Shown: positions 1 through 60,742, counted from the stretch's first letter. The stretch: DNA of 64,000 nucleotides from Candidatus Dormiibacter spiritus (GCA_003244185.1 QHBT01000010.1:29726-93725), one strand, 5' to 3'. Made by a program: numbers and translations. Notes: generated by a model not told the origin, from the sequence alone.

Positions 1-10
1 GCCCCAGCGG

Positions 11-2017
11 TTGCCTGACCCCGAGGCCAAGGAGACCCGCCAGTCGCCCCAGCCGGCGAGCCCAGCGCAGGCAGCGTCCCCCGGCGACCGCTCCCCCGAT
101 CGGCGCTCTCAACCCGAGGGAGCCGTCCTCCCGCCCGCTCCGGAGCTGGTGAGCCTCAGCATCGACGGCCAGGAGATCTCCGTCGCCAAGGGCACGCTGA
201 TTGTGGAGGCGGCGCGGCGGCTGGGAATCGAGATCCCTGTCTTCTGCTACCACCACAAACTGGATCCGGTGGGCGCCTGCCGGCTCTGCCTCTGTGAGAT
301 CAGTCCCGGTCCGCCCAAACCGCAGACCGCCTGCACGACGCCTGTCGCGCAGGGCATGAAGGTACAGACCAACACCCAGCTGGCGGTGAGCGCTCGCGCT
401 GACATCCTCGAGTACGAGCTGGTCAACCATCCGCTGGACTGTCCTGTCTGCGACAAGGGTGGCGAGTGCCCGCTGCAGGATTACACCTTTCGCCATGGCT
501 ATCCAACCAGCCGGATCGACGCTCCGCGGCTGCATTTCCAGAAACCGATTCCCCTCTCGCCCCGGATCGCCCTAGACCGCGAGCGCTGCGTGCTCTGCTA
601 CCGCTGCACGCGCTACTACGACGAGATCGCCTGGGAGCAGGAGCTGACGACCGACCAGCGCGGCGCGCACGCCTTCATCACCAGCCAGTTCGGAGAACCC
701 CTCCAGTCGGTCTTCAGCGGCAACATCATCGACCTCTGTCCGGTCGGGGCTCTGACCAGCCGCGTCTGGCGCTTCGAGTCGCGCCCCTGGGACATGAACC
801 ACACCTTCTCGGTCTGCTCGCGCTGCTCGGTCGGCTGCAACGTGACGCTCTGGGAGCGGCGCCACCAACTGGTCAGGGTGACCTCCCACGAGAACGACGC
901 AATCGATGATGGCTGGATCTGTGACAGAGGCCGCTTCGAGTACACAGAGGTCAATGCCCCGGAGCGGCTGCGCCAGCCCCAGGTGGGGGGCCAGCCCGCC
1001 ACCTGGGAGGCCTCGCTGCAGGCGGTGGCGGAGGGCTTGAAAGGTCGGCGGCTCGGCATGTCGCTTCGCCGCGATGTGACCAACGAGGAGCTCTACCTGC
1101 TGAGCCGGCTGCTGGCCGGTCCTCTGCAGGGCGCCCGGGTGGCGATGGAGAATCGGACCTGTCTGCCCCCACCCCAGGGCGAGACACTGCGCATCGAGGA
1201 GCTCGACACCTGCAAAGCCATAGTCGTGCTCGGCGCCGACCCGGAGAAGGAGACGCCCATCGTCGACCTTCGGATCAAGAAGGCTGTCAAGAAGCTCGGC
1301 GCCAAGCTGCTGCTGGTCAACGCCGCCGACCTCGACCTCGACCGATGGGGCGACGCAGTGCACATTCGGCCCGGCGATGCCGGCCTGGCCGCGACCGCCA
1401 GGCAGCTGATTGGCCATGAGCTGCTCCAGTCAGGCCCCGTCGGCATAGTCCACGGCCACTACCCCGCCGACGAGGCCGCGACCGCGGAACTGGTAGCGGC
1501 CGCCCAGGAGCTCGCCGGTAGCTGCGGCGCCAAGGTCATGCCGCTCTACCAGGCGACCAATGAGCGCGGGGCACTGATCACAGGGGTGGTCGGGAAACCC
1601 GATGACCTGGTCGGCTGCGACGCAGTCCTCTGCTTCGGACCGCCTGCAGTCCCCCTGCCCTCCTCGGCCGGGTTCGTGGTCGTCTGGGATACTGTGCTGC
1701 GCCCGGCGCAGGGCAGGCCTGACGTGATTCTGCCGGCGCTCAGCTTTGCGGAAACGCAGGGCAGCTACACCAATCTGGAGGGTCGGGTCCAGTTCCTGCG
1801 GCCGCCCCTGGAGGTGCGCCAACCACTGCGGGAGAGCTGGGACGTGCTCTGTGATTTGGGCGTACGTCTGGGTCTGGCCGAATTCAGCCGCTATGCCGGC
1901 ATCTTTCAGATCCAGAGGGCGGCCGCCGCAACCTTCCCCGACCTCGCGGCGCTGGCCGACCCGCCAGCACCCGAAGCGCCGCCTCGGCCGGTGCTCCTCG
2001 GAGCCTCGCGGCCGTGA
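11..2017 (+). CDS. nuoG: NADH-quinone oxidoreductase subunit G (NuoG). Start uncertain: the frame is open to the window edge, and GTG at 149 is an alternative.
   Basis: Fe-S cluster cysteine motifs typical of the 75-kDa subunit (CYHHKLDPVGACRLC, HPLDCPVCDKGGEC, CVLCYRCTRY). It is first in a contiguous nuoG-N gene order. Confidence 0.9.
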   Translation: MPDPEAKETRQSPQPASPAQAASPGDRSPDRRSQPEGAVLPPAPELVSLSIDGQEISVAKGTLIVEAARRLGIEIPVFCYHHKLDPVGACRLCLCEISPGPPKPQTACTTPVAQGMKVQTNTQLAVSARADILEYELVNHPLDCPVCDKGGECPLQDYTFRHGYPTSRIDAPRLHFQKPIPLSPRIALDRERCVLCYRCTRYYDEIAWEQELTTDQRGAHAFITSQFGEPLQSVFSGNIIDLCPVGALTSRVWRFESRPWDMNHTFSVCSRCSVGCNVTLWERRHQLVRVTSHENDAIDDGWICDRGRFEYTEVNAPERLRQPQVGGQPATWEASLQAVAEGLKGRRLGMSLRRDVTNEELYLLSRLLAGPLQGARVAMENRTCLPPPQGETLRIEELDTCKAIVVLGADPEKETPIVDLRIKKAVKKLGAKLLLVNAADLDLDRWGDAVHIRPGDAGLAATARQLIGHELLQSGPVGIVHGHYPADEAATAELVAAAQELAGSCGAKVMPLYQATNERGALITGVVGKPDDLVGCDAVLCFGPPAVPLPSSAGFVVVWDTVLRPAQGRPDVILPALSFAETQGSYTNLEGRVQFLRPPLEVRQPLRESWDVLCDLGVRLGLAEFSRYAGIFQIQRAAAATFPDLAALADPPAPEAPPRPVLLGASRP

Positions 2018-3063
2018 GGTCGACTGTGTTCCTGGTGCCACCCGACCCGTTCGGCGTCTATAGCAACCCGATCGGCCACTGGTTGGTGGTCGTGATTGCG
2101 ATGGTGATGCTGGTTTTTGTGCTGCTCACCGCCACTGCCTACACCGTCTACTACGAACGCCGGGTGCTCGGCTTCATCCAGAACCGGCCGGGTCCCAACC
2201 GCGTGGGACCGCTGGGCCTCCTGCAGCTGGCGGCGGACGGCTTGAAGATCGCTTTCAAGGAGAGCTTCGCGCCCGTCGGCGTCGACCCCCTGCTCTATGT
2301 GCTGGCGCCGGGGATCATCGTAGTGGCGGCTTTTCTCTCCTGGGCCGTGATTCCGATCGGACTCAGCGACAGCTTCACCTACTGGATCGCCAACCTGAAC
2401 ATCGGCATTCTATTTGTCTTTGCGGTGGGCTCGATGAGCGCCTACGCCACACTGCTGGGCGGCTGGTCTTCGAACAACAAGTACTCCCTGCTGGGCGGGC
2501 TCAGAGCGGCGGCACAGTTGATCAGCTACGAGATGGCGTTGGGTCTCTCGCTGGTGCCGATCTTCATGATCACCGGCTCGCTGCGCCTGCAGGACATCGC
2601 GAGCTACAGCGTTCAGCTGGGTCCCTACCACGGCCCCCTGCCGCTCATCGTCGTGGCCCCGGTCAGCTTCGTCATCTACTTCATCTCGGCGGTGGCCGAG
2701 ACCAACCGCACGCCCTTCGACCTGCCCGAAGCCGAACAGGAGCTGATCGGCGGCTATCTGACCGAGTACTCGGGCTTGAAGTTCCTCTGCTTCTATCTGG
2801 GCGAGTACATAAACATGATCACAACCTCAGCGCTGGCGGTGCTCATCTTCTTCGCCGGCTGGCATCCCACCTTCGGCTTCCTGCCGGCCATTCTGACCTT
2901 CGCCGTCAAGGTGGTGCTAGTCCTCTTCATCTACATCTGGCTCCGGGCCACGCTTCCCCGGCTGCGCTACGACATGCTGATGCGTTTGGGCTGGAAGTTC
3001 CTCCTACCGCTGGCCATCGCCAACGTGGTGGTCACAGCGGTGATAGTGGTGGCGGTTTCCTAG
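2014..3063 (+). CDS. nuoH: NADH-quinone oxidoreductase subunit H
   Basis: Polytopic membrane protein with the NuoH/ND1-like segment YERRVLGFIQNRPGPNRVGPLGLLQ. There is a 4-nt overlap with nuoG. Confidence 0.95.
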   Translation: MRSTVFLVPPDPFGVYSNPIGHWLVVVIAMVMLVFVLLTATAYTVYYERRVLGFIQNRPGPNRVGPLGLLQLAADGLKIAFKESFAPVGVDPLLYVLAPGIIVVAAFLSWAVIPIGLSDSFTYWIANLNIGILFVFAVGSMSAYATLLGGWSSNNKYSLLGGLRAAAQLISYEMALGLSLVPIFMITGSLRLQDIASYSVQLGPYHGPLPLIVVAPVSFVIYFISAVAETNRTPFDLPEAEQELIGGYLTEYSGLKFLCFYLGEYINMITTSALAVLIFFAGWHPTFGFLPAILTFAVKVVLVLFIYIWLRATLPRLRYDMLMRLGWKFLLPLAIANVVVTAVIVVAVS

Positions 3064-3067
3064 CGCG

Positions 3068-3568
3068 ATGAATGAGAAGACGGGCGAGCAGAACGTTCTC
3101 AGGGATGTAGCGGCGCTGGGCGTCGGCCTCAGGACCACGCTCAGGGAGATGTTCCAGCCCCAGGTCACGCTGAGCTACCCGGAGGAGAAGAAGCCTCGCT
3201 CAGCGCGCTACCGAGGCCGTCACTATCTGCGCCGCTACGACAACGGTCTCGAGCGCTGCATAGGCTGTGAGCTGTGCGCCGCCAACTGCCCCGTCGGCTG
3301 CATCCTGGTCATCGCCGCCGAGAACTCGGAGGAGCACAGGGTCAGCCCGGGAGAGCGCTATGCGAAGGTCTACGAAATCAACATGCTGCGCTGCATCTTC
3401 TGTGGCTACTGCGAGGAGGCCTGCCCCGTGCAGGCGATCGTGCTGGGTCCCGAGTACGAGCTGTCAGAAGTGAGCCGCGAGCGCTCGATCTATACGAAGC
3501 CGATGCTGCTGGAGCCGGATCCCGGACCTCATCCTGACCAGCAAGAACCGATCCGGGTCGGGGGCTAG
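3068..3568 (+). CDS. nuoI: NADH-quinone oxidoreductase subunit I
   Basis: Two 4Fe-4S ferredoxin motifs, CIGCELCAANCP and CIFCGYCEEACP, and its position within the nuo operon. Confidence 0.95.
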   Translation: MNEKTGEQNVLRDVAALGVGLRTTLREMFQPQVTLSYPEEKKPRSARYRGRHYLRRYDNGLERCIGCELCAANCPVGCILVIAAENSEEHRVSPGERYAKVYEINMLRCIFCGYCEEACPVQAIVLGPEYELSEVSRERSIYTKPMLLEPDPGPHPDQQEPIRVGG

Positions 3569-3574
3569 GCTTTT

Positions 3575-4117
3575 GTGAGCCTGGCGGGCGTTCTCTTCTA
3601 TGTGCTTGCCCTCATAGCCGTGCTGGGCGGCGTCGGGGTGGTGATCTCGAAGGAGCCCGTGCGCTCGGTCCTGAGCTTGGTGGGCGTGATGCTGGCCCTG
3701 GCCGGCCTGTTCCTGATGCTCTCGGCCCAGTTCGTCTTTGCGGTCCAGATCATTGTCTACGCGGGCGCCGTGATGGTGCTGTTCCTCTTCGTGGTCGCCC
3801 TGCTGGGCCCCATCCGGGAGGGCCCGAGCGGCCCGCTGAAGCTGCACTGGGCGTATCTGGTGGTAGTCCTGGCGCCGCTCACGATCGGGCTCTGGGCGCT
3901 CCTGAACCAGATCCAGTTTCGCAAGCCTGACGGCCTCGACATCACGTTCTTCGGCACCGTCGAGCAGATCGGCTACGGCCTCTTCACCACCTACCTCTAT
4001 CCCTTCGAGCTGACCTCAATCCTGCTCCTCATCGCTGCCGTGGGCGCCATCTACCTGAGCCGCGGCGGTCGCAGCGCCGAGGAGGAACGAGAAGGCGTGG
4101 AGGGTCGCAGTGTCTGA
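3575..4117 (+). CDS. nuoJ: NADH-quinone oxidoreductase subunit J
   Basis: Hydrophobic 180-aa protein between nuoI and nuoK. GTG start. Confidence 0.9.
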   Translation: MSLAGVLFYVLALIAVLGGVGVVISKEPVRSVLSLVGVMLALAGLFLMLSAQFVFAVQIIVYAGAVMVLFLFVVALLGPIREGPSGPLKLHWAYLVVVLAPLTIGLWALLNQIQFRKPDGLDITFFGTVEQIGYGLFTTYLYPFELTSILLLIAAVGAIYLSRGGRSAEEEREGVEGRSV

Positions 4118-4451
4118 CTACGGCCAGCTGCAGATCGGCAACGCCGGCAGCGTGGACGCCGTCCAGTTCCTGCTCTTGGGCGCAGTGCTGTTCGTCATTG
4201 GAGCCATCGGCGTCATCATCCGCCGCAATCCGTTGGTGATTCTGGTCTCGATCGAGCTCATGCTCAACGCCGTCAACCTGACGCTCATCACCTTCGCCCG
4301 ACAGCTGCACAACACCGAGGGACAGCTGTTCGCGCTTCTGACCATGGTGGTGGCCGCGGCGGAGGCGGTGGTCGGCCTGGCGGTGCTTGTCGACGTCTTC
4401 CGTACCCGCGACGTCGACGACGTTGATGAGCTGAGCGAGCTGAAGGGTTGA
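4110..4451 (+). CDS. nuoK: NADH-quinone oxidoreductase subunit K
   Basis: 113-aa three-helix membrane protein (ND4L-like) in the operon position. Confidence 0.9.
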   Translation: MSDYGQLQIGNAGSVDAVQFLLLGAVLFVIGAIGVIIRRNPLVILVSIELMLNAVNLTLITFARQLHNTEGQLFALLTMVVAAAEAVVGLAVLVDVFRTRDVDDVDELSELKG

Positions 4452-6361
4452 GCACTCTTCAGTTGGTGGCGCTGGCAGTCCTGGCGCTGCCGGCGCTGGG
4501 CGCGCTGGCGCTGGCGATCGGCGCCCTGCGGATCCCGCGCGGGGCCATCCGGGTGATCGGTCCGGGAGCGGTCTGGGCGGCGTTCATCTGCGTGGTGAAC
4601 CTCTTGCTCGACTCGCTGGCTCACTCCCAGCCCCACGACTTCAGCTACTGGACCTGGATCCGAAGCGGCGACTTCCAGCTGCCGTTCGACCTCCTGGTCG
4701 ATCGGCTCTCCATCTTCATGTGCCTCGTCATCACCGGAGTGGGCGGTCTGATAGTCACGTACGCCGTCGGCTACATGGAGCATGAGACTGACGGCAGCTA
4801 CGCTCGCTTCTTTGCCTACATGGACCTGTTCGTGCTCTCGATGCTCCTCCTGGTCCTGGCCGGCAACTTCCTGTTCCTGATCGTCGGCTGGGCGGGCGTG
4901 GGCCTCAGCTCGTATCTCCTGATCGGCTTCTACTACTGGCGCAACTCGGCGGTCGTGGCGGCGCGCAAGGCTTTCATCATGAACGTGATAGGCGACATCG
5001 GCCTCATCCTGGCGGCCTTCGCAATCTTTCTTACCTACCATGCTGTCACCTTTGTCGGCGTCTTCCAGCGGCTGGGCGGCAGCGACAGCTTTACTCTGGA
5101 GCTGATCGCCTTCCTGCTCCTGGTAGGTGGCATCGCCAAGTCCGCCCAGCTTCCGCTTCACACCTGGCTGCCTGATGCGATGGAGGGCCCGACCCCCGTC
5201 TCGGCGCTCATCCACGCGGCGACCATGGTGACCGCCGGCGTCTACCTGGTCGGCCGGATGCACCCGATCTACGATGTCGCCCTCTACGCCCATGGGACTG
5301 TGGCGGTGATCGGCGCCGCCTCGGCGCTGTTTGCGGCGACAGTGGCTCTGGTCCAGACGGACATCAAGCGAGTGCTCGCCTATTCGACCATGAGCCAGAT
5401 CGGTTACATGTTTTTAGGCGTCGGCGTCGGCGCCTACGCGGCCGCCTTCTTCCACCTGCTGTCCCACGCCTTCTTCAAGGCCCTCCTCTTCATGAGCGCC
5501 GGCAACGTGATTCATGCCATGCACGACGAGCAGGACATGCGCCGATTCGGCGGCCTCTGGCGCCAGCTGCGGCCCACCTCCATCGCCTTTCTGATCGGCT
5601 CCCTCTCGCTGGTCGGGATCATCCCGCTGGTCGGATTCTTCTCCAAGGAGCTGATCCTCGGCGACGCCTTCAGCAAGCCAGGGGGCAGCGGCTTCCCCCA
5701 GCTGATGTGGCTGGTCGGTTTCGCGACCGCGATCCTGACGGGCTTCTACACGGGTCGTATGTGGTGGCTTGCCTTCTGGGGTCCGCCTTCCCCCGACCGC
5801 GCGGTCGCCGAACCGCACGAGGCCCCGCGGGTGATGCTGTGGCCGGTGCTGATCCTGGCCGGCTGCACAGTCTTGGGCGGCCTGCTCCAGACCAGCGCGC
5901 TCAGCTCGCAGGGCCCCAAGCTGATCGAGGAGTTCCTTTCGCCGGCGGTCGGCAGGCTCGGCTGGGAGGCCAATCCGCTGGAGCTGCTTGCCACCGCGGC
6001 GACGCTTTTTTTGGGGGCGGGCGCATTCTGGCTCGCCAGATATTTCTATGTGGAGAAGCGCTTCGCTCCCTGGTCGCAGCGCTTGCCGGGTGCTCAGCGG
6101 GTTCTGGAGCACAAGTACTACTTCGATGAGGCCTACAACGCAGTCTTCGTGCGGGGCCTGGACGCGCTGGCCAGGGGCGGGGAGCGGCTGCTGGAAAACC
6201 CGGTCTTCGACGGCAGCGTCGATGGCGTCGGCACCGGAGCCGAGGCTGCCGCCGGTGGGCTGTCGCTCACCCAGACGGGCTTCTTCCGGAACTATGCTTT
6301 CGTCTTCGTGGCGGGCGTTGTGGTCGCCGGCGGGCTGCTTCTGATCAGGCTGGCGACCTGA
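4448..6361 (+). CDS. nuoL: NADH-quinone oxidoreductase subunit L
   Basis: Antiporter-like subunit with HTWLPDAMEGPTPVSALIHAATMV. 637 aa. Confidence 0.95.
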   Translation: MSTLQLVALAVLALPALGALALAIGALRIPRGAIRVIGPGAVWAAFICVVNLLLDSLAHSQPHDFSYWTWIRSGDFQLPFDLLVDRLSIFMCLVITGVGGLIVTYAVGYMEHETDGSYARFFAYMDLFVLSMLLLVLAGNFLFLIVGWAGVGLSSYLLIGFYYWRNSAVVAARKAFIMNVIGDIGLILAAFAIFLTYHAVTFVGVFQRLGGSDSFTLELIAFLLLVGGIAKSAQLPLHTWLPDAMEGPTPVSALIHAATMVTAGVYLVGRMHPIYDVALYAHGTVAVIGAASALFAATVALVQTDIKRVLAYSTMSQIGYMFLGVGVGAYAAAFFHLLSHAFFKALLFMSAGNVIHAMHDEQDMRRFGGLWRQLRPTSIAFLIGSLSLVGIIPLVGFFSKELILGDAFSKPGGSGFPQLMWLVGFATAILTGFYTGRMWWLAFWGPPSPDRAVAEPHEAPRVMLWPVLILAGCTVLGGLLQTSALSSQGPKLIEEFLSPAVGRLGWEANPLELLATAATLFLGAGAFWLARYFYVEKRFAPWSQRLPGAQRVLEHKYYFDEAYNAVFVRGLDALARGGERLLENPVFDGSVDGVGTGAEAAAGGLSLTQTGFFRNYAFVFVAGVVVAGGLLLIRLAT

Positions 6362-7905
6362 TGCTCACAGCGATCTGGCTCCTCCCGGTGGCCGGGGCGC
6401 TGGCGGTGGCGCTGCTGCCCCGCCATCTGGCCAAGCCGGCCGGCCTGGGCGTTGCCGGGCTGACCCTGCTGCTCACGCTGCTGCTGGCGGTCACCTTCGA
6501 CCCTGGCCACCGCGGCTACCAGTTGGAGGAGAACCTGCCCTGGGTCGATCAGTACAAGGTCGCCTATCACCTCGGCGTCGACGGCATCAGCCTCTGGCTG
6601 CTGGTGCTGAACGCCCTACTGACTGTGATCGCCATCCTGGCCACCGGCCCCCGGCTGCGGCGGCTCCGCGGCTTCATAGCCATGCTGCTCTTCCTGGCGG
6701 GCTGCATGGCCGGCATCTTTCTGGCCGCCGACCTGCTGCTCTTCTACGTTTTCTGGGAGGTCCAGCTGATCCCCGCCTACTTCCTGCTCTGGCAGTGGGG
6801 CGAGGGCCGCTCCGGCCGGGCGGCGCTCAAGTTCATCCTCTACACGCTCGTGGGCTCTTTGCTGGCGCTGGTCGGCGTGATCGGCGAGTACATCTATGCC
6901 GGCAACACGTTCCAGCTCGCAGATCTGGCGGCACACCCACCGACGCCTGCCATCCAGTTCGGTCTGTTCCTGCTGCTCGGACTTGCCTTCGCCATCAAGG
7001 TGCCCCTCTTCCCCTTCCACGGCTGGCTGCCTGACGCCTACCGGGCGGCTCCTGCCGCGTTCCTGGTCACGTTCGCCGGCGTGATGGGCAAGACGGGCGC
7101 CTACGCCATGCTGCGGATTCTCATCCCTCTGCTGCCTCATCCAGTCTTCTGGTGGGACTGGAACGGCGTGATGCCCATTCTCGCGGTGATCGGGATCGCC
7201 TGGGGAGCGCTCTTGGCCCTCACTCAGCGCGACATGAAGATGGTCATCGCCTACTCCAGCGTCAGCCACATGGGCTTCATTGTGCTGGGCATCTTCTCCT
7301 TCAACCAGCCAGGTCAGCAGGGCGCCCTGATCCAGATGATCAACCACGGGGTGATAGTCCCCGCCCTCTTCCTGCTCGTCGCCTGGATCGGCGCTCGGAC
7401 GGGCTCGCGCGACCGCGCAGTGTTGAAGGACCTGGCTCCCCGGATGCCTGTGCTGGCGGGCATCTTTCTCATCGTCACGCTGGCCGCGCTGGGGCTGCCG
7501 GGGCTGAACAGCTTCGTAGGCGAGTTCATGACGCTTTTGGGAGCCTGGCAGTTCGCGCCCTGGCTGGCGGTGGCCGGCTGCATAGGGCTGCTGCTGGCGC
7601 CTGTCTACATGCTGCGGCTCTTTCAGGGCGTCATGTATGCGGCGCGGGGAGAGCAGCTCGGCGCGCCCAGCGCCGCGATCGCTGAAGGAGCGCACGGAAG
7701 CGAAGTGCGGACAGCAGCCGACGGTGGCGTAATCCAGTCGGTGACCGCAGTGGCAGCGCGCCCGGCGCGTCTGGACCTCGCTCGGGCCGAGTTGGGGATC
7801 CTGCTGCCGTTGGTGCTGCTCATGTTCGTGCTGGGGCTCTATCCCTACCTCATCACACAAGCGATGAACGCGCTCGCCTTCCCGCTGCCGGTGCCGTGGC
7901 GATGA
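6361..7905 (+). CDS. nuoM: NADH-quinone oxidoreductase subunit M
   Basis: Antiporter-like subunit with PLFPFHGWLPDAY. Follows nuoL. Confidence 0.95.
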   Translation: MLTAIWLLPVAGALAVALLPRHLAKPAGLGVAGLTLLLTLLLAVTFDPGHRGYQLEENLPWVDQYKVAYHLGVDGISLWLLVLNALLTVIAILATGPRLRRLRGFIAMLLFLAGCMAGIFLAADLLLFYVFWEVQLIPAYFLLWQWGEGRSGRAALKFILYTLVGSLLALVGVIGEYIYAGNTFQLADLAAHPPTPAIQFGLFLLLGLAFAIKVPLFPFHGWLPDAYRAAPAAFLVTFAGVMGKTGAYAMLRILIPLLPHPVFWWDWNGVMPILAVIGIAWGALLALTQRDMKMVIAYSSVSHMGFIVLGIFSFNQPGQQGALIQMINHGVIVPALFLLVAWIGARTGSRDRAVLKDLAPRMPVLAGIFLIVTLAALGLPGLNSFVGEFMTLLGAWQFAPWLAVAGCIGLLLAPVYMLRLFQGVMYAARGEQLGAPSAAIAEGAHGSEVRTAADGGVIQSVTAVAARPARLDLARAELGILLPLVLLMFVLGLYPYLITQAMNALAFPLPVPWR

Positions 7906-9401
7906 CTTTGCTGAGCACAGTGCCCCAGATCAACTACGGCGTCGGTCAGGCCTGGTCTGATCTGAGCCAGATCCTGCCCATCGCGTTGGTGGCGGTGGCG
8001 CTGCTGGTGGCCATAGTGCTCGACTTCAGCCTGCCCCAGCCTTTGCGCGGAACAGCAGCGGCCCTTACCGCGGCCGCCGGTTTGGCCCTCGCGCTGCTGG
8101 TGGCGGCGTTGCGCTTCGCGACAGGTGGTGGCGGCAGCGCCTACTCAGGCTTCGCCAGCGGCGACACCTTCGCCCTCTTCTTCGAGATGCTGCTGGCCGC
8201 GCTGGGACTCTTGAGCGTCGTCATCTCCCGCGTTTACGTGCGCCGCCGCAACCTGCTGGAAGCCGAGCTGCACGTGCTGCTTCTGGCCGCCGTCGCCGGC
8301 ATGATGGCGCTGGCATCGGCAACCTCGCTGGTCACCGTTTTCATCTCGCTGGAGACCCTCTCGGTGGCGCTCTACGTGGCGTGCGGCTACTCCCGCCGGG
8401 ACACCGCTTCGCAGGAGTCGGCGGTCAAGTATCTGCTGGTGGGCGGCTTCGCCAGCGCCTTTCTGCTCTACGGCATGGCACTTGCTTACGGCGCCACCGG
8501 CACGACTGTGCTGAGTGAGATCGGCAAGCGCGTCACCGAGCAGGACGCTCACAATCCGCTGCTGATCCTGAGCGTGATCCTGATGGCAGTCGGCTTTGGC
8601 TACAAGATCTCCGGGGCCCCATTTCATCAGTGGACGCCTGACGTGTACCAGGGCGCGCCGCTGCCGGTTACCGCCTTCATGTCGGTGGGCACAAAGGCTG
8701 CAGCGTTCGCCATGATCATCCGCGTCTTCGGTACGGGCCTGGCCCACCTGCAGGCGGAGTGGGCCCTGATCCTGGCCTTCATCGCGGTGGCCAGCATGCT
8801 GATCGGCAACCTGGCGGCAGTCGTCCAGACCAGCTTCAAGCGGCTGATGGCCTACTCCTCGGTCGCGCAGGGCGGCTACATGCTGGTGGGTGTGATAGCC
8901 GGTGGCAAGTCGGGCTTCGGCGCCACCCTGTTCTACCTGGGCGCCTACCTGTTCATGAACTTCGGCGCCTTCGCCGTGCTGACTGTGCTGGTCACACCCG
9001 AGGGGGAGCACGACCGCATCAGTGACCTTGACGGGCTGGGCTACAGACATCCGCTGCTGGGAGTCCTGCTCACCGCCTTCATGCTCTCCCTCGCCGGCTT
9101 CCCGCCCAGCCTGGGCTTTTTCGGCAAGCTGTTCCTCTTCACAGCGGGTGTGCAGAGCGGCTGGACGGCTGTAGTAGTTGTGGCGGTGCTCGCCAGCGTC
9201 ATCTCGGTGGCGTATTACGTGCGCGTGGTCTATCACGTCTGGTCGCCAGTCACCTCTGAGCGTCGGCTCTGGCGCTCGCCGGCCGCCGTCGGCGTCGTCA
9301 CAGTGACCGCTGTGATGGCGCTGGCGATCAGCCTCTATCCAGCGCTGGTCTTCGCCCTCGGCCTGACCGGAGCCGCTGACGCGCTGGCCGCCGGGCACTG
9401 A
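7896..9401 (+). CDS. nuoN: NADH-quinone oxidoreductase subunit N
   Basis: Antiporter-like subunit with GAPFHQWTPDVYQGAP. Last gene of the operon. Confidence 0.95.
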   Translation: MAMTLLSTVPQINYGVGQAWSDLSQILPIALVAVALLVAIVLDFSLPQPLRGTAAALTAAAGLALALLVAALRFATGGGGSAYSGFASGDTFALFFEMLLAALGLLSVVISRVYVRRRNLLEAELHVLLLAAVAGMMALASATSLVTVFISLETLSVALYVACGYSRRDTASQESAVKYLLVGGFASAFLLYGMALAYGATGTTVLSEIGKRVTEQDAHNPLLILSVILMAVGFGYKISGAPFHQWTPDVYQGAPLPVTAFMSVGTKAAAFAMIIRVFGTGLAHLQAEWALILAFIAVASMLIGNLAAVVQTSFKRLMAYSSVAQGGYMLVGVIAGGKSGFGATLFYLGAYLFMNFGAFAVLTVLVTPEGEHDRISDLDGLGYRHPLLGVLLTAFMLSLAGFPPSLGFFGKLFLFTAGVQSGWTAVVVVAVLASVISVAYYVRVVYHVWSPVTSERRLWRSPAAVGVVTVTAVMALAISLYPALVFALGLTGAADALAAGH

Positions 9402-23660: not shown

Positions 23661-25019
23661 CTAAACCTCGCCGAAACGGAGAAGCAGCCGGGCGACGTGC
23701 CGGGCGGCCTGCCGGATGTCCTCCAGCCGCACGCTCTCATTGGGACTGTGGGCGAGGTTGCTGGCGCCGTAGCCGACGCCCGGCGCCACAATCGGCACTC
23801 CGCGGCCCGCGAAGAGAAACATGGGGGTGGTGCCGCCGGACAGGGGCACCAGCTGGGCCGGCCGACCGTAGACCTCGGCGCCGGTCTCTGCCGCCAGCCT
23901 GACCAGCGGGTCGTCAGGGTCGATGAAGGCGCCCGGCTCGCAGCCGATCACTCGCAGGTTGACGTCGGGGAAGCCCTCCGCGTCCAGGTGGGCACGCAGC
24001 TGGCCCGCGACGGCAGCGGGGTCCTGGCTGGGTACGAGCCGGAAGTCGAGCTTGGCGCTTGCCAGCGCCGGGATGACTGTCTTGGCTCCTTCCCCCTGGA
24101 AGCCGGCTGTTACGCCGGCGATGTTGCAGGTCGGTTGGAATCGGGCCGCCAGCACTTCAGCTCCCGTCCGGCCGAGCAGCAGCGAGTCCAGCTCGTAGGT
24201 GGCCAGCAGTCCGCGCTCAGGGCTGGGTAATTCGGCCAGCATCGCCAGCTGGCGAGGAGTTGGTTCTGGGACGCCATCGTAGAAGCCCGGGATCTTGATG
24301 CGCTCGTCCTGGCCCTTCAAGGTGCTGAGCGCCCAGGTCAGACGCCAGGCCGCATTGGGGATGAGGTTTGCCTCTCCAGAGTGGCCGTCCCGGCCGCTGG
24401 CCCTGACGCTCAGCTCCACGTAGAGCAGGCCGCGAGTGCCGAGGGTCACGAGCGGCCGGCCCTCGGGATCGACGCCACCCTCTTCCCAGATGGCGCCGTC
24501 GCAGCGCAGCCTCTCCCAATGCCGCTCGACAAACGGCGGCAGATGGGGACTGCCCACCTCCTCCTCGCCCTCGGCCAGCCAGCGAACGTTGCAGGGAAGG
24601 CCGCCGGTGACCGCCTGCAGGGCGTCGACCGCCGCCAGCCGGGCCATCAGCTCGCCCTTGTCGTCCTTGGCGCCACGCGCGTAGAGACGGCCGTCTCTCA
24701 GGTCCGGCTCAAATGGAGGGCTTTGCCAGAGGTCAAGCGGTTCAGGCGGCTGGACGTCGTAGTGGTTGTAGAAGAGCATGGTCTTGCCTCGGCCCGCCGC
24801 CAGCTCGCCGACCACCACGGGATGACCGTCTGTTGGCAGCACCTCGGCAGCCAGCCCGCGCCTTTGGAGCAACCGGCAGACGTGCGCGGCGCACTCTTCT
24901 ATGCCCTCGTGCCGGGCGGAGACGCTGGGCAGCCGGCAGAGCTCGACCAGCTCCTCTACCCAACCGTCTAGGTGGGCCTTGAGGTAGCTGTCGAGGTCAT
25001 TCAGGAGCCGCGCCGACAT
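23661..25019 (-). CDS. M20 family metallopeptidase (dipeptidase-like). Start ATG 25019.
   Basis: LFYNHYDVQP, ARGAKDDKG and EGEEEVGS motifs. The track ORF (to 25427) runs through the tRNA-Pro gene and is over-extended. Confidence 0.85.
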   Translation of the reverse strand: MSARLLNDLDSYLKAHLDGWVEELVELCRLPSVSARHEGIEECAAHVCRLLQRRGLAAEVLPTDGHPVVVGELAAGRGKTMLFYNHYDVQPPEPLDLWQSPPFEPDLRDGRLYARGAKDDKGELMARLAAVDALQAVTGGLPCNVRWLAEGEEEVGSPHLPPFVERHWERLRCDGAIWEEGGVDPEGRPLVTLGTRGLLYVELSVRASGRDGHSGEANLIPNAAWRLTWALSTLKGQDERIKIPGFYDGVPEPTPRQLAMLAELPSPERGLLATYELDSLLLGRTGAEVLAARFQPTCNIAGVTAGFQGEGAKTVIPALASAKLDFRLVPSQDPAAVAGQLRAHLDAEGFPDVNLRVIGCEPGAFIDPDDPLVRLAAETGAEVYGRPAQLVPLSGGTTPMFLFAGRGVPIVAPGVGYGASNLAHSPNESVRLEDIRQAARHVARLLLRFGEV

Positions 25020-25053
25020 GCATCCGACTCTAACGGCTGGCAACTGGGTGAGG

Positions 25054-25130
25054 TGGTCGGGCGGGCGAGATTCGAACTCGCGATCTCCTGCTCCCAAAGC
25101 AGGCGCGCTGCCAGACTGCGCTACCGCCCG
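25054..25130 (-). tRNA. tRNA-Pro (anticodon UGG), CCA encoded
   Basis: Reverse complement CGGGCGGTAGCGCAGTCTGGCAGCGCGCCTGCTTTGGGAGCAGGAGATCGCGAGTTCGAATCTCGCCCGCCCGACCA folds as a 77-nt cloverleaf. Anticodon loop is TTTGGGA. Confidence 0.95.
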
Positions 25131-25389
25131 TGTCTTTGAGCCCAGCTGCCATGCCTGCTCCCGAAACCGCGCTGCGAAGCGTTGCCTGCCCGGCATCGCT
25201 GGCTGAGCAGGACACGGCGAAGTGGACGATAGCGAACGATACAGAGGGGACGGGCAGCAAGAGGAGGCGGGGAAGCTTGGAGTCCTGGAGCGGCTGGTGT
25301 GGCAGCCGACGCAGGGCAGGACTCTGGGCGTGCCTTCGTCATACCGACCGATACCCGGCGAGCCGGCGACGCGCGTTATAGTCCCAGCC

Positions 25390-25479
25390 ATGGATACGAC
25401 CACCCTGATCATCGTCATCGTCGTCATCGTCTTAGTTCTCGGCGGGGGCGGCTTCTGGTATCGCGGACGAGGCCGCTAG
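25390..25479 (+). CDS. possible 29-aa hydrophobic peptide (MDTTTLIIVIVVIVLVLGGGGFWYRGRGR)
   Basis: A single TM helix plus a basic tail. TATAGT (25377-25382) ends 7 nt before the ATG, a leaderless-type arrangement. Below the usual gene-caller size. Confidence 0.3.
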   Translation: MDTTTLIIVIVVIVLVLGGGGFWYRGRGR

Positions 25480-26012: not shown

Positions 26013-26525
26013 ATGGCCCAAGCGACTGCCCTGAACGTGCTCGACACCGAGGGACAGTCAGTCGACCTGCTGACGCTGGCCGCCGAGAGACCGCTGCTGG
26101 TCGTCTTCCTCCGCCACTTCGGTTGAACCCACTGTCTCGAGACAGCCGCGCAGTTGCGCGGCAAGCTGCCTCAAATCGAGGCCAAGGGCGCTCAGCTCAT
26201 CTTTGTCGGGAACGGGTCTGTCAAGTTCGCAGCCAGATTCCAGGAGGACAAGGTGCCGGGGATCCCCGTCTACACCGATCCTTCGCTCAGCACCTTCAGC
26301 GCCGCCGGCCTGAAGCGCGGCATCGGAGCCACACTCTCGCTCGGGAGCCTGCTCGCCGGCGCCCGCTCGACCTTGCGCGGTCATCGTCAGACCTCAGTCC
26401 AGGGGGACCCCTGGCAGCAGGGAGGCGTGATAGTTGTGGCGCGCGGCGGCGAGGTGGTCTACCGGAGGCCCAACCAGCACGCCGGTGAGCGGCCCGACCT
26501 AGCGGCGGCTCTCGCCGCGCTCTGA
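26013..26525 (+). CDS. peroxiredoxin-like (AhpC/TSA, PRX_like2-type) thiol-disulfide oxidoreductase; probable selenoprotein with Sec at the in-frame TGA 26124-26126
   Basis: ATG 26013, 37 codons ending ...LLVVFLRHFG, TGA, then THCLETAAQL... in the same frame as track ORF 26154..26525. The TGA replaces the first Cys of FxRHFGCxxC. Confidence 0.65.
26132..26162 (+). promoter_or_regulatory. SECIS-like stem-loops immediately downstream of the in-frame UGA
   Basis: Palindrome ctgtctcgagacag (26132-26145). Also a 7-bp stem gccgcgc/gcgcggc (26145-26151 / 26156-26162) with an AGUU loop about 26-29 nt after the UGA. Confidence 0.5.
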
Positions 26526-43305: not shown

Positions 43306-44431
43306 CTAGCCTTCGGCTAGCCGCCAGCGAAGCCAGCCCTCCAGGAAGGGCTCGAGTTGACCGTCCAGAACAGCCTGGGCGTTGCCGACCTCAACGCCCG
43401 TCCGCACGTCCTTGACCATTGTGTACGGCTGCAGCACGTAATTGCGAATCTGGCTGCCGAACTCGGCAGGCATCACGTCCCCGCGCAGTTCGTCCCGCTT
43501 CTTGGCAGCCTCCTCCTGCTGACGCTGGAAGATCCGCGCCCGGAGGACCTTCATGGCCAGCTCACGATTCTTCAGCTGGGAGCGCTCGTTCTGGCAGGAG
43601 ACCACTATCCCAGTCGGGAGATGCGTCAGCCGCACTGCCGAGTCGGTCTTGTTGACGTGCTGGCCACCGGCCCCGGTCGAGCGATAGGTGTCGACCCGAA
43701 GGTCCTCGGGATTGATCTCCACCTGCGCCTCTTCCCCCTCGGCCAGCTCGGGCATGACCTCCACCAGGGCGAACGAGGTGTGTCGGCGGTGATTCTGGTC
43801 GAAAGGCGAGATGCGGACCAGGCGATGTACACCGTGCTCGGCGCGCAGCAGGCCGTACGCTCGGCGGCCGCGGAGAACCAGGGTGGCCCCCTTCAGCCCT
43901 GCCTCTTCCCCAGCCGCCGTGTCGATCACCTCCACCTCGCATCCCGGCCGCAGGGTTGACCGCTCCTGGGCCGGCGGCTGCGCCCACTTCATGTACATGC
44001 GCATTAAGATCTCAACCCAGTCCTGAGCGTCAACGCCGCCCTGGCCGGCCGAGATGCTGAGCACGGCGTTGTGCCTGGCGTAGGGATCGGCGAAGAGCAC
44101 CTCCAACTCCAACTGCTGCAGCTCCTGATCGACAGCCAGGCTGTCGACTTTCACCTGCTCCGCCAGCTCTTCGTCCTGACCGGCGAGCTGCGCCAGCTCC
44201 TCCAAGTCCTCGGCTCGTCGCTGCAGCTGTTCCCAGACCGTGACTTCGTCGCGCAGCTCGCGAGCTTCTCGGGCAATCCCCCCGGCAGCCTGGGAATCCT
44301 CCCAGATGCCGGGCTCGGTCAGCTTGGCCTCGAGCTCCTCAGATCGGCGCCGCTTTTCCGGCAGGTCAAAGATGCTCCTTGAGCTCGAGGATGCGCCGAA
44401 GTTGCTCCGCGGGCGTGCGATCAGCGGCCAT
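43306..44431 (-). CDS. prfB: peptide chain release factor 2, with a programmed +1 frameshift (join 44431..44369 and 44367..43306)
   Basis: Frame 0 is ATG 44431 MAADRTPAEQLRRILELKEHL, then CTT TGA C. The +1 frame continues DLPEKRRRSEELEAKL... with the SPF and GGQHVN motifs. Confidence 0.95.
44365..44380 (-). other. RF2 autoregulatory +1 frameshift site
   Basis: The minus strand reads AAGGAG cat CTT TGA C: an internal SD-like element, 3-nt spacer, slippery CUU, then an in-frame UGA followed by C. Confidence 0.9.
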
Positions 44432-47078
44432 GACAGCGTTTGTACTTCTTGCCCGAGCCGCACCAGCAGGGCTCGTTGCGGCCGACTTTGACGTTGCCGG
44501 CGGGTGTGCCACCGGTTGTGACGCCGTCGTCGGCGACGGCACCGACCGCGGCGCCGACGGGAACCTTTCGTTCGGAGCCGTTGCTGGTTGATCGCCGTTC
44601 CGGCGCCGCGACCTGTGGTGGCGGCCTCTCGGGCTCCAACTGCACGCGAAACATGCTGGCGACGACGTCGCCCTGAATCGAAAGGGTCAGCTCGTTGAAC
44701 ATCTTCAGCGCTTCGTTCTTGAACTCGACGAGGGGGTCCTTCTGGGCGTAGGCCTGGAGGCTGATCCCCTCCCGGAAATGCTCCATGGTGGTCAGGAAGT
44801 CAACCCACTTGGTGTCGATGGTTCGCAGCATTACGAAGCGCTCCACCTGCCGCACTACTTCCGGATCGCCCAGTTCTGCTTCCTTCTGCTCGTAAACAGC
44901 CAGCGCCGCGTCGTAGAGGTAGTTGGCGAGACCGTCCTTGCCCGAGTTCAGAGCCTCGTCGGGAAGCTCCGTTTCAGGTGCGATCGGCATGTAGTGAGAC
45001 AGGTAGCGCAGCAGCTCCTCCAGATCCCAACGGTCGGGATGCCGCCCCGTGCAGTTCGCCTCCACGCCCCTGTCGATGACCTCGCGCAGGTAGTCGAGGA
45101 TGTTGGCCCGGGTATCGATGCCGCTCAGTACCTTCTCGCGCTCGGCGTAGATCAGCTCCCGCTGCGTGTTCATCACGTCGTCGTATTCGACGACGTGCTT
45201 GCGAGCGTCGAAGTTCATGCCCTCCACGCGCCGTTGAGCGCGCTCGATGGAGCTGGTCACCCAGCCGTGTTCGATGCGGTCTCCCTCGAGCCTGTCCATC
45301 AACCTGCCTATGCGGTCGGCCGCCGGCCCGAAGACCTGCATCAGCTGGTCGTCCAGGGAGATAAAGAAGCGCGTCGAGCCCGGGTCGCCCTGCCGTCCGG
45401 CTCGGCCGCGCAGCTGGTTGTCGATGCGCCGGCTCTCATGCCGCTCGGTGCCGACGATATGCAGTCCGCCCAACGCTTGCACGCCGTCGCCGAGCACTAT
45501 GTCGGTGCCGCGACCCGCCATGTTGGTGGCGATCGTGACAGCCCTCTGCTGGCCGGCCTCGGCCACGATGCTCGCCTCACGCTCGTGCTGCTTGGCGTTG
45601 AGGACGTTGTGCTTGACGCCCTTCTTCTGCAGCAGGCGGGCGAGCCGCTCTGATTTGTCGACGGAGACCGTGCCCACCAGCACCGGCCGGCCCAATTCAT
45701 TCATCTCCACAATCTCATCGATGACTGCGGCGAACTTGGAGTCCTCGTCGCGATAGATGACGTCCGCCTCGTCAAGCCTGATGAGGGGCCGGTTGGTGGG
45801 GATCTCCACGACTGTGAGCCGGTAGATCTTGTCGAATTCCTCCGCCTCAGTGATTGCGGTGCCCGTCATCCCGGCAAGCTTGTCGTAGAGCCGGAAGTAA
45901 TTCTGCAAAGTGATCGTCGCGAGCGTGCGCATCTCCTGCTGGACTTTGAGGCCCTCCTTGGCCTCCACCGCCTGGTGCAGCCCGTCTGACCAACGCCGCC
46001 CTGGCATCGTCCGGCCGGTGAACTCGTCCACTATCACCACCTCCCCGTTCAAAACGAGGTAGTGGTCCTCCCGGTGATAGAGAGCCTTCGCTTTCAACGC
46101 CTGGTTGAGCTGGTGGGCTTCGACTGCCTGCTCCAGGTCGTAAATGTTCTTGATTCCGGTCAGGCGCTGAATTTTGGCGATGCCCTCTTCGGTCAGCGAG
46201 GCTGACTTGTACTTGAGCTCGACTATGTAGTCGACGTCTTTTTCCAGCTTGGCCGCATAGCGCGCGTACTGGTAATACTTGTCGGTCGATTCGGCGGCGG
46301 GGGCCGAGATGATGAGAGGCGTCCGAGCCTCGTCGATCAGGATTGAGTCGACCTCGTCCACTATGCCGTAGTGGAGCTTGCGCTGAACCCGCTGGCTCAG
46401 ATCGGTAGCCATGTTGTCGCGGAGATAATCGAACCCGAACTGGTTGTTGGTGCCGTATGTGATGTCGCAGCGGTAGGCCTCCTGCCGGCCGGAAGGCCGG
46501 AGGTGGCGCAGTCGCGGATCCGAGTGGTCCGGATCCGCGTAGTCAGGGTCGTACACGAAGGACCCGTTGGGCTGGTGCGGGTCGCCGACGATGACGCCTG
46601 TGCTGAGACCCATGCCGTGATAGACAGGCGCCATCCAGCCCGCGTCGCGCCGGGCCAGGTAGTCGTTGGCGGTGACCAGATGAACGCCTTCCCCGGAAAG
46701 GGCGTTCAGAGCCAGCGGCAGCGTGGCCACCAGCGTCTTGCCTTCACCTGTCTTCATCTCCGCGATCTTGCCGTGGTGGAGAACGATGCCGCCCACGATC
46801 TGGACGTCGAAGTGTCGCATGCCGATGGTGCGCTGAGCGAGCACCCTGGTCAGGGCGAAGGACTCCTCCAGAAGATCTTCCAGGGACTCATCCTGAGCGC
46901 GGCTCCGCAGCAGCTCGGCCCGGGCCTTGAGCTCGGCGTCGCTGAGCGGCTTCAGCTCGTCTTCGATCTCACCAATCCGCTCAGCTGTGCGCAGGTGGTG
47001 GCGGATTTCCCGCTCATTCGGGTTGAAGACACCACCGAAGAGCCTCATCAGGCTGCCCACCTCGGGCTCGGCAGGCAT
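44421..47078 (-). CDS. secA: preprotein translocase ATPase SecA
   Basis: DEAD-like motor motifs (MKTGEGKTLVATLP, VDEVDSILIDEARTPLIIS, TNMAGRGTDI) and a C-terminal zinc finger (CWCGSGKKYKRCHG). Confidence 0.97.
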   Translation of the reverse strand: MPAEPEVGSLMRLFGGVFNPNEREIRHHLRTAERIGEIEDELKPLSDAELKARAELLRSRAQDESLEDLLEESFALTRVLAQRTIGMRHFDVQIVGGIVLHHGKIAEMKTGEGKTLVATLPLALNALSGEGVHLVTANDYLARRDAGWMAPVYHGMGLSTGVIVGDPHQPNGSFVYDPDYADPDHSDPRLRHLRPSGRQEAYRCDITYGTNNQFGFDYLRDNMATDLSQRVQRKLHYGIVDEVDSILIDEARTPLIISAPAAESTDKYYQYARYAAKLEKDVDYIVELKYKSASLTEEGIAKIQRLTGIKNIYDLEQAVEAHQLNQALKAKALYHREDHYLVLNGEVVIVDEFTGRTMPGRRWSDGLHQAVEAKEGLKVQQEMRTLATITLQNYFRLYDKLAGMTGTAITEAEEFDKIYRLTVVEIPTNRPLIRLDEADVIYRDEDSKFAAVIDEIVEMNELGRPVLVGTVSVDKSERLARLLQKKGVKHNVLNAKQHEREASIVAEAGQQRAVTIATNMAGRGTDIVLGDGVQALGGLHIVGTERHESRRIDNQLRGRAGRQGDPGSTRFFISLDDQLMQVFGPAADRIGRLMDRLEGDRIEHGWVTSSIERAQRRVEGMNFDARKHVVEYDDVMNTQRELIYAEREKVLSGIDTRANILDYLREVIDRGVEANCTGRHPDRWDLEELLRYLSHYMPIAPETELPDEALNSGKDGLANYLYDAALAVYEQKEAELGDPEVVRQVERFVMLRTIDTKWVDFLTTMEHFREGISLQAYAQKDPLVEFKNEALKMFNELTLSIQGDVVASMFRVQLEPERPPPQVAAPERRSTSNGSERKVPVGAAVGAVADDGVTTGGTPAGNVKVGRNEPCWCGSGKKYKRCHGR

Positions 47079-52892: not shown

Positions 52893-53681
52893 TCAAATGA
52901 ATGACCGGGAGCGCATCAGGGGGGGCAGGGCGTCGGGCAGCCCGGCTGCCCCTCGGACGGCGCAGGTGAGCGGCTCTGGCGGAACGCGCACGGGCAGTGC
53001 CGTCCAGCCGGACAACTCGGCTGCGAGGTGCGGCCACCGCCACAGGTCGCCAGCCAGATGAAATCCCCGCTCGCGGGCCTGCTGGGTCTGCCTGTCAGTC
53101 AGGCCGGAGTGGACTTCCTGGAGCATGGTCGCCAGCTGCCGGGTCGGGCTCTTTCCCACCGGCCTGCCGGTCTGCCAGGCAGCAGCCCCCAACTGCGCGG
53201 CGCCGTCCAGTACAGCTACCTCGGCGCCCCTCCCGTGCACGTGGATCACCGTCTCCAGATCGCCTCTGCCCAGCTGCAGACCGACCCCAACGGCCGCCGC
53301 TAAGGGGCCATCGACCAGCCAGCACTGGCCAGCGCCGGCTGCCACCGCAGCTCCACTTATCCGCACAGCGGCGGCTGCAGGTAGCTGACCCTGCAGGCAG
53401 ATGCCCAAGGCCGGGCGGAAGGGCCAGCGGAGACCGACGAAGCGATCCAGCACGTGTTCGACCACGAGGCTGAGCGTGATCAGCTCCGGCTGGGTCCAGC
53501 CGCCGCCCAGAACCTGCGCCTCGATTGAGCCCTCGGCGGGCTCCTCGCCCAAGCCCAACAGCGCCCCTGTCCGGCGCTCGAAGAGCGCGACGCCCGGTTG
53601 ATCGAGCACCAGGCCTGTACCGTCCAGCCAGACCCGCACCCGGTCCGGGCTGACCTGCAAGCCCAGGCGGCGGCCAAGCAT
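52893..53681 (-). CDS. MreB-like actin-fold protein, shortened and with degenerate nucleotide-binding motifs
   Basis: Collinear similarity to MreB ([43 protein letters not shown]). The phosphate-binding motifs are replaced, and it is 262 aa. Confidence 0.6.
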   Translation of the reverse strand: [262 protein letters not shown]

Positions 53682-53693
53682 CCTAACCGGGAC

Positions 53694-54998
53694 TCATACT
53701 GGCTCGACGCCTTGACTGGCGGCTGGGACCGCTGCCGGCCGCCGCTCCAAGTCGGCGCCCAGCGCTACGAACTTCTCCACCAGGTCCTCATAGCCCCTGT
53801 CCAGGTGCCAGGCCTGCTCGATGGCGCTGACACCCTGAGCGCACAGGGCGGCGATGACCAGCGCCGCCCCCGAGCGGATGTCGGAGACCCCCACCGTCGC
53901 CCCCTGCAGTTGGCGCGGCCCCGTCACGAGCGCATCCCGGCCGTGGATCTCGATGCTGGCGCCCATGCGGTTCAACTCGGTGGCGTGTTGAAAGCGGTTT
54001 TCAAAGATGTACTCGGAGATGACACAGCTTCCCTGCGCCTGCGTCATGAGCGCCATGTACTGAGCCTGGAGGTCGGTTGGAAAGCCGGGATGGACCCACG
54101 TGCCCATGTCGACGGCCCGCAGCGCCTGGGCCGGGTCGCGCCGAACCCGCAGCGTCCGATTGCGCTGCTCGAGCTGAACGCCCACCTCCTCCAGCTTGAG
54201 CAGCGTCTGCTCCAGATCCTCGTTCGGGCATTCATCGATGGTCACATCCCCGCCTGCGGCGGCGGCGGCGATGGCATACGTACCCGCCTCCAGGTAGTCC
54301 GGGACTACCTGATGCTCAGTCCCTCGCATCCGCCGGCCGCCGTAGATCACTATCTGGTCGGTGCCGGCGCCCCGCACGTCGGCGCCCATCTTGTTGAGCA
54401 GGCGGCAGAGGTCTTGGACGTGGGGTTCGCGAGCCGCGTTGAAAATCTCCGTGCGACCTTCGGCGAGAGTTGCAGCCATCACCAGGCTCTCGGTGCCCGT
54501 GACTGTGGGCAGGTCCAACACGACCCGCGCTCCCTTGAGCCGGCCCTCGCTGCGGGCGATTATCTCGTGCTCAGTTTCCTCGACCCGGGCTCCCATCGCC
54601 CGGAATCCGCGCAGGTGCTGCTCCACGCGGCGGGCGCCGATCTGGTCTCCTCCCGGCCGCGTGAGGTGTGCCTCGCCCGTTCGCGCCAGCAGGGGGCCCA
54701 GCAGCACTATGGACGCGCGCATCCGCTGCGCCATCTGGGCGGGGACTCGATCGGTGACCTGCGTGGCCTGGAGGGTGATGCGTCCCTCACCGTCAAGCGT
54801 CGAACGGCCACCCACTGCCTGCACGATCTCCGCCATCAGCGCCGTGTCGAGAATCCGCGGCACATTGCGCAGGTGGAGTGGCTCAGGAGTGAGCAGCGCC
54901 GCCGCCATGATGGCGAGGGCTGCGTTCTTGGAGCCGGCCACCTGCACGCGCCCGCGCAGGCGGCGACCGCCGGTGATCAGAAGCTGGGCAGCCACCAT
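53694..54998 (-). CDS. murA: UDP-N-acetylglucosamine 1-carboxyvinyltransferase
   Basis: [27 protein letters not shown], a [12 protein letters not shown]-type region, and C-terminal DRGYE. Confidence 0.95.
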
Positions 54999-55024
54999 CC
55001 CATCACACCAGGGATCGGCCCGCC

Positions 55025-55456
55025 TCAGCCCCGCTGGCTGCGAGACCTGGCCAAACGCAGGCGGGCTTCGGCCACCTCCAGGATCAGAGCGATGTTCGAC
55101 TCCTCTTCCGGGCTGAGCTGACCCTGGGTCTGCAAACGCTCCTGCGCCCGGCGCCGGGCTTCTTCAGCCTTCTGCTCGTCGATCTCGTCGGTCCGCTCAG
55201 CCTCATCGGCGAGAACCGTCACGCGGTCGGGCAGCACCTCGAGAAAGCCGCCTCCGACGAACAGCGAGGTCTCCTCCCCCCCGTTGCGGATCCGAAGCTC
55301 GCCGGGGCGCAGTGAGGTCAGCAACGGCGAGTGCCGAGGCATGATGCCAAGTTCACCCTCGGCTCCCTGGCAGACGAGGAACGGCCGGCCCTCGCCGTCC
55401 ACCTCGCCCTCGAAGAGGGAGCGCTCGATGCTGACGACTCGCAGCTCTACTGGCAC
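55025..55456 (-). CDS. atpC: F1 ATP synthase epsilon subunit
   Basis: 143-aa beta-sandwich plus helical hairpin, last gene of the atp operon. Confidence 0.9.
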
Positions 55457-55493: not shown

Positions 55494-57838
<2,345 letters not shown>

Positions 57839-57864
57839 TAGGGAGTCGTCACTGCTTTAGACAA

Positions 57865-59379
<1,515 letters not shown>

Positions 59380-59408
59380 AGTCGTTCCCCTAATTCACTC
59401 TTGCTGGT

Positions 59409-60716: not shown

Positions 60717-60742
60717 TGACTCCTCCTAACTAGTGGACAGGT

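Follow-up and report, generated by a model that had tools for sequence, protein, structure and literature searches.

A peroxiredoxin-like reading frame interrupted by a single UGA

On the plus strand of the window, by which we mean the whole 64-kb stretch of DNA analyzed (G+C content 66%), a reading frame at 26013–26525 is broken solely by a TGA codon at 26124–26126. The frame opens with an ATG (26013–26015), the first start codon past an upstream in-frame stop and one that occupies the same place in two related contigs, L001 and L002. It encodes MAQATALNVLDTEGQSVDLLTLAAERPLLVVFLRHFG up to the TGA and continues in the same frame as THCLETAAQLRGK... (also given as THCLETAAQLRGKLPQIEAKG...) to the true stop codon, a TGA at 26523–26525. 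With the internal UGA read as selenocysteine (Sec, U), the product would contain 170 residues with U38 in the motif F-L-R-H-F-G-U-T-H-C, where U38 would be the attacking residue of a U-x-x-C center and the TGT codon at 26133–26135 supplies C41, the resolving cysteine, which is Cys in nearly all members. The mechanical ORF list contains just one piece of this frame, a 3′ fragment at 26154–26525 (+) with a TTG start and 123 amino acids. The interrupted frame is thus directly visible in the DNA, and both its coordinates and the listing of the 3′ piece alone are as an initial annotation of this sequence had described them. The 26154–26525 ORF is an artefact of taking the UGA as a stop.

On one side, the gene has a DUF1801 gene as its neighbor; Ham1/RdgB, RNase PH, TatC, TatA, and cyclophilin genes lie on the other. 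A conserved neighbor that might give a clue to a redox partner was sought among related loci, and none was common across phyla; synteny was found within lineages only. Farther away, the window contains a partial nuo operon at 2–9401 (+), where Pfam confirmed genes like those for NuoG, NuoH, NuoL, NuoM, and NuoN, and an F-type ATP synthase operon at 55494–61519 (−), in which the alpha and beta subunits were confirmed and the other subunits were assigned from gene sizes alone. A tRNA-Pro (UGG) gene at 25054–25130 (−) lies within the longest ORF (23661–25427, −) of an M20 peptidase gene; because the M20 Pfam domain does not begin until residue 218, the true peptidase start lies downstream of the tRNA.

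The UGA occupies the catalytic-cysteine position of a PRX_like2 protein

For family searches, we wrote the U of the conceptual 170-residue protein as C. The protein matched Pfam PF13911 (AhpC-TSA_2, PRX_like2) with 64 bits (E = 2e-17, profile positions 2–112 of 114), above the gathering threshold of 27 bits, and matched PF00578 (AhpC-TSA; 31.7 bits) and Redoxin more weakly. The NCBIfam model NF040769, "SelL-related redox protein", aligned over positions 3–172 of 173 with 111 bits (E = 4.8e-32), short of its curated cut-off of 120 bits. Other Dormibacterota members that we tested also fell below this cut-off (96–115 bits), and members from three loci of other phyla passed it (L010, L013, and L024; 123–146 bits), all of which have the same UGA and the hairpin described below. 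Judged by these profile scores, the gene is placed in PF13911/PRX_like2 as a putative divergent sister branch of NF040769 rather than as a curated member.

A collection of 5.8 billion proteins yielded 74 homologues of the window protein. Thirteen were full-length, aligned with it end to end, and carried FLRHFGCxxC or a close variant; in all 13, the TGA column aligned directly with the first Cys of F-x-R-x-F-G-C-x-x-C, the position to which the initial annotation had assigned it. That annotation had also proposed an alignment with PRX_like2 homologues, in which the column proved to hold Cys in full-length proteins and TGA or TGC/TGT in DNA. The other 61 homologues were 3′ fragments that began just past the UGA column, at differing M, V, or L codons, and extended over 76% of the query or less. 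One of these, P0045 from a Dormibacterota MAG (130 amino acids), bears the NCBI name "peroxiredoxin-like family protein".

As a stand-in for the window protein, we modelled a full-length Cys orthologue from a Dormibacteraceae MAG (P0005, 55% identical). The fold is directly apparent in the AlphaFold model, which had a mean pLDDT of 93 and a pTM of 0.89 and placed the motif cysteine (C40) between a central β-strand (residues 30–34) and the N-terminus of a helix (residues 41–51), predicted to be the canonical active site of a thioredoxin fold. The top structural matches of this model in the PDB were to human prostamide/PGF synthase PRXL2B (9usa/9us9; TM scores of 0.76–0.83), followed by BCP/PrxQ peroxiredoxins (TM scores of about 0.65–0.7) and ResA. 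The human enzyme (PGFS) was also the top PDB match by sequence (1.7e-8), with FGUTHC aligned to FGCVVC (C44-x-x-C47) and the UGA column therefore opposite C44.

Codons on both sides of the UGA evolve as coding sequence

We compared codon changes between the window and L001, to which it is 89% identical at the DNA level. Across the 37 codons that precede the UGA, 10 codon changes were synonymous and five were non-synonymous, and 12 of 18 base differences fell at the third position. Downstream of the UGA, there were 24 synonymous and 13 non-synonymous changes, the same pattern as upstream. This likeness indicates that the N-terminal segment is translated in the same frame as the remainder, and the direct codon comparison shows that purifying selection acts both before and after the UGA.

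These results bear on the possibility that the UGA simply terminates translation, so that the 123-residue 3′ product is made alone from TTG 26154 or another internal start and the 37 upstream codons form a separate small ORF or are untranslated. ORF callers and public annotation, including the entry for P0045, treat the locus in this way. However, the upstream codons are conserved at the protein level and align with full-length Cys homologues, and the internal start is not conserved among the database fragments. Judged from the P0005 model, moreover, the annotated 123-residue fragment is not plausible as a protein because a product begun past the UGA would be missing β-strands 1–3, helix 1, and the catalytic residue. 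We consider termination at the UGA very unlikely.

TGA alternates with cysteine codons across phyla

To the window we added 80 loci obtained from a single scan of species-representative genomes, seeded with a narrower alignment (A2), alignment A1 being too diverse. Among these 81 loci, which span at least six phyla, the motif codon was TGA in 69, TGC in 10, and TGT in two, with the frame open on either side. Sec and Cys forms numbered 12 and three, respectively, in Dormibacterota-like MAGs (window included), 10 and one in Acidobacteriota, eight and three in Myxococcota, 22 and four in Planctomycetota, and 11 and one in other or unclassified genomes; the four loci from Gemmatimonadota and the two from SAR324 were all Sec forms. 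The Dormibacterota motif is U-[TIA]-H-C, whereas U-[LMI]-F-C predominates in other groups. Three Planctomycetota loci (L047:5031, L062:1834, and L079:5082) have a U-x-x-T motif (RH[FY]G-U-L-F-T-R-E-R), without the resolving cysteine. In L020 (Candidatus Binatia), the frame from position 4086 stays open for ~450 codons past the UGA, compared with the usual ~135, and could be a domain fusion or reflect a lost stop codon.

The source contig is metagenome-derived, and an erroneous base at 26126, introduced in sequencing or assembly, might in principle have created the TGA. The same TGA is nevertheless present in L001 and in L002, a Candidatus Dormiibacter inghamiae contig that is 91% identical to the window at the DNA level and syntenic with it over 10.3 kb, as well as in dozens of unrelated MAGs. 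The codon is present in three independent assemblies with 89–91% DNA identity over 6–10 kb, so that neither an error in sequencing nor a nonsense mutation of recent origin can account for it, and we regard the probability of such an error as practically negligible.

A nonsense mutation might also have inactivated a Cys-type peroxiredoxin-like gene, leaving a pseudogene. A single base change suffices to convert TGC or TGT to TGA, and gene callers handle the locus as truncated. Against this reading, 69 of the 81 loci, drawn from many phyla, have the same TGA, the frame remains open with mostly synonymous changes upstream of the TGA, and a covarying hairpin accompanies the TGA forms and not the Cys forms. 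These sequence comparisons effectively refute inactivation by nonsense mutation, which appears exceedingly unlikely.

A conserved hairpin follows the UGA

A SECIS-like hairpin lies within the coding sequence at 26145–26162 (+). As the initial annotation had noted, a perfect 7-bp stem (26145–26151 paired with 26156–26162) closes an AGUU loop (26152–26155), giving GCCGCGC-AGUU-GCGCGGC. The loop starts 25 nt after the UGA, and the G at its second position and the U that follows are 27 and 28 nt past the last base of the UGA. The bSECISearch model uses a UGA-to-loop range of 16–37 nt, which includes the distance in the window, and the G-U step in a SECIS loop is the SelB contact. When the 52 nt after the UGA were folded, the minimum free energy was −18.3 kcal/mol (z = −1.8), and 6 of 200 shuffled sequences folded as well; in the window sequence alone, the hairpin is weakly better than chance and no proof of a SECIS. 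Its significance comes instead from the conservation of TGA and hairpin together over 69 loci. Searches of Rfam at the hairpin gave no match at the gathering threshold or at a permissive E-value, apart from chance-level matches on the other strand.

To score pairing, we used an alignment (A3) of 48 nt counted from the U of the UGA, which is gap-free in all 69 TGA loci and in which columns 22–28 pair with columns 33–39. The loop was AGUU in 49 loci and AGGU in nine. Standard pairs filled 82.8% of stem cells (68 distinct sequences), compared to 71.0% when the 3′ partners were shuffled and 21–53% when the partners were slid by 1–3 columns. Stem cells changed on both sides numbered 54, compared to 16.7 ± 4.0 in shuffles (none of 500 reached the observed value), and the covariation score was 0.347 compared to 0.157 in shuffles. 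Five of the seven stem pairs showed compensatory replacement, for example of C-G by U-A or G-C. Six or more of the seven pairs could form in 52 of the 69 TGA loci but in none of the 12 Cys loci (Fisher p = 7e-7). The loop coincides with Gln-Leu or Gln-Val codons in the TGA loci, and the Cys forms vary there. The alignment thus directly shows conservation of UGA and hairpin with covariation, and a hairpin that is conserved, covarying, and missing from the Cys forms is as expected for a SECIS located inside a coding sequence.

Most TGA loci off the canonical register keep some hairpin. A bulged version of the common hairpin occurs in Planctomycetota, and the SAR324 loci have a variant of their own. 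In L030, L043, L059, L066, L070, and similar loci, a different hairpin places a GGC or GGU loop ~20 nt after the UGA; in these five and in L033, a structure ~13–30 nt past the UGA, for example GCGAGCA-GGC-UGCUCGC, replaces GC-AGUU-GC. L040/L048 group with the Sec members that have no common GC-AGUU-GC hairpin. These differing hairpins among Sec members suggest SECIS turnover inside one protein family.

The initial annotation had also noted a 14-nt palindrome directly downstream of the UGA. This palindrome or small hairpin, CTGTCTCGAGACAG (26132–26145, +), is present between the UGA and the SECIS stem; in A3, however, it is kept just in the window, L001, and L002 and partly in L008 and L039. 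Since only the nearest relatives retain it, the palindrome is probably incidental.

Decoding of the UGA

The UGA codon retains its usual role elsewhere in the window, where it is the commonest stop and ends 33 of 56 called genes. A prfB gene (RF2, with PCRF and RF-1 domains and the SPF motif) lies at 43306–44431 (−), directly downstream of secA (44421–47078, −). From an ATG at 44431, its first frame runs for 21 codons and ends in CTT TGA C (44371–44365, −), preceded by an AGGAGC Shine-Dalgarno-like element, and the +1 frame continues as DLPEKRR... to the stop. A CTT TGA C +1 frameshift is classic RF2 autoregulation, and gene callers will mis-start or split this gene. We also scanned the window for further ORFs that an in-frame TGA might interrupt and obtained three candidates, none of them convincing. 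The candidate at 53694 was rejected as the normal stop of an EPSP_synthase-family gene (53697–55163, −), probably murA or aroA. A 262-residue ORF with a weak MreB-like match lies directly in frame past this TGA (53694, −), and the ORF on the strand opposite the gene (53598–55121, +) has no Pfam match and an atypical codon-position GC pattern.

We found no selA, selB, selD, or tRNA-Sec in the 64-kb window, where every ORF of appreciable size was scanned, and none in the 80 loci of 10 kb each. ARAGORN detected no tRNA-Sec in the 80 loci, and tblastn with approximate E. coli SelA and SelD query sequences gave no match in the window and loci, weak evidence of absence within ~0.7 Mb. That a dozen Dormibacterota-like genomes retain both the UGA and the hairpin is strong indirect evidence for the existence of Sec machinery.

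The lack of visible Sec machinery in the window and the 80 loci is also what might be expected if the UGA were read through without Sec, either under a reassigned genetic code or by near-cognate insertion of Trp or Cys promoted by the hairpin, and in other systems a structured RNA that follows a stop codon can favor read-through. The use of UGA to end 33 of 56 genes and the RF2 frameshift site, whose autoregulation depends on UGA, show that a reassigned code is not the explanation. In addition, the codon alternates with Cys codons only and does so at a catalytic CxxC, the signature of a Sec/Cys pair, and relatives pass an NCBIfam model named for selenoprotein L. Read-through without Sec is therefore unlikely, and we give it only a small chance.

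With the UGA read as Sec, 26013–26525 (+) very probably encodes a 170-residue cytoplasmic PRX_like2/AhpC-TSA_2 thioredoxin-fold oxidoreductase in which U38 is the first active-site residue. The alignment of the UGA with a Cys column, the conserved covarying hairpin, and selection upstream of the UGA bear out the proposal in the initial annotation of a probable selenoprotein missed by ORF calling. We infer that translation would depend on SelB and tRNA(Sec) and that selenium would be incorporated into the window protein. When a ribosome arrives at the UGA (26124–26126), the mRNA hairpin (26145–26162) would recruit SelB-GTP-Sec-tRNA(Sec), which would outcompete RF2; Sec would then be inserted, and translation would run on to the stop at 26525. 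If the chemistry follows that of other thioredoxin-fold enzymes with CxxC/UxxC centers, the U38 selenolate might attack an oxidized substrate, either a peroxide or a disulfide, and then form a selenenylsulfide with C41, after which a thiol reductant would re-reduce the center.

Discussion

The gene described here is almost certainly a genuine if ordinary member of a catalogued bacterial selenoprotein family, located in a Dormibacterota genome and using TGA as a Sec codon. What is modestly new is the U-[T/I/A]-H-C motif of this clade, its systematic mis-annotation, and the link between Dormibacterota and Sec. Within the literature collection searched, no paper connects Dormibacterota with selenocysteine or selenoproteins. 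Together with orthologues from ten or more Dormibacterota MAGs, the gene may be the first evidence that this phylum decodes UGA as selenocysteine, a priority that we advance tentatively and with somewhat less than even confidence. Dormibacterota are aerobic bacteria that scavenge trace gases and live in soils, including those of cold deserts. Selenoproteins have been described as rare in aerobic bacteria (2026 review, PMC13188914). A Dormiibacter-like organism with a working selenocysteine system and a need for selenium is implied.

For sequence databases, the result corrects a systematic error in which 61 of 74 homologues, including NCBI-named Dormibacterota entries, are stored headless and without the catalytic residue. 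Because the Dormibacterota clade scores just under the NCBIfam cut-off, pipelines label its members as a truncated "peroxiredoxin-like family protein". A GC-AGUU-GC hairpin at a fixed distance from the UGA offers a simple signature with which to recover the whole family. The main outcome is a corrected annotation, together with a hint that Dormibacterota use Sec; no new mechanism is revealed.

Among bacterial selenoproteins, those with a thioredoxin fold and a U-x-x-C motif are the most common, and SelL and SelU are Sec-containing members of the PRX_like2 superfamily, whose domain is cd02970. The window protein and NF040769 have the motifs RHFG-[U/C]-x-x-C and GDPWQQGG in common and differ in that the window and Dormibacterota members, with U-[TIA]-H-C, score below the cut-off of that model. 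Selenoprotein L proper has two Sec residues in a U-x-x-U motif, whereas the second position in the window is a TGT cysteine codon (26133–26135). Compared by description, the catalogued Prx-like thiol:disulfide oxidoreductase also has a thioredoxin fold with Sec first in U-x-x-C/U (PMC13188914, PMC2398784), and a survey of GOS data reported Prx-like selenoprotein families with UxxC/UxxU (PMC2398784). The 2026 review tabulates a cd02970 "Peroxiredoxin-like family protein" selenoprotein with UxxS, which differs, again by description, from the UxxC of the window, and remarks that pipelines often mis-call such genes as truncated (PMC13188914).

Human PRXL2B (PDB 9us9/9usa) is only about 21–24% identical to the window protein and has the same thioredoxin fold, with its CxxC between a β-strand and the N-terminus of a helix. 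Typical peroxiredoxins (AhpC/BCP/PrxQ, PF00578) are more distant, giving the weak Pfam match of 31.7 bits and, as BCP/PrxQ, the next-best structures. Because their peroxidatic motif, P-x-x-x-[TS]-x-x-C, is missing in the window (VVFLRHFGUTHC), where the site is a thioredoxin-like U-x-x-C, the gene is not a typical peroxiredoxin. With respect to the RNA element, eukaryotic PRX_like2 selenoproteins carry a SECIS in the 3′-UTR, whereas the window element lies inside the coding sequence just past the UGA. The fdhF-type SECIS of E. coli is likewise a hairpin within the ORF, directly past the UGA, and its small apical loop contains a G-U step. In the window, by contrast, the AGUU loop (AGGU in relatives) caps a perfect 7-bp stem in which no bulged U is evident, and it lies about 7 nt farther from the UGA than the loop of the fdhF SECIS.
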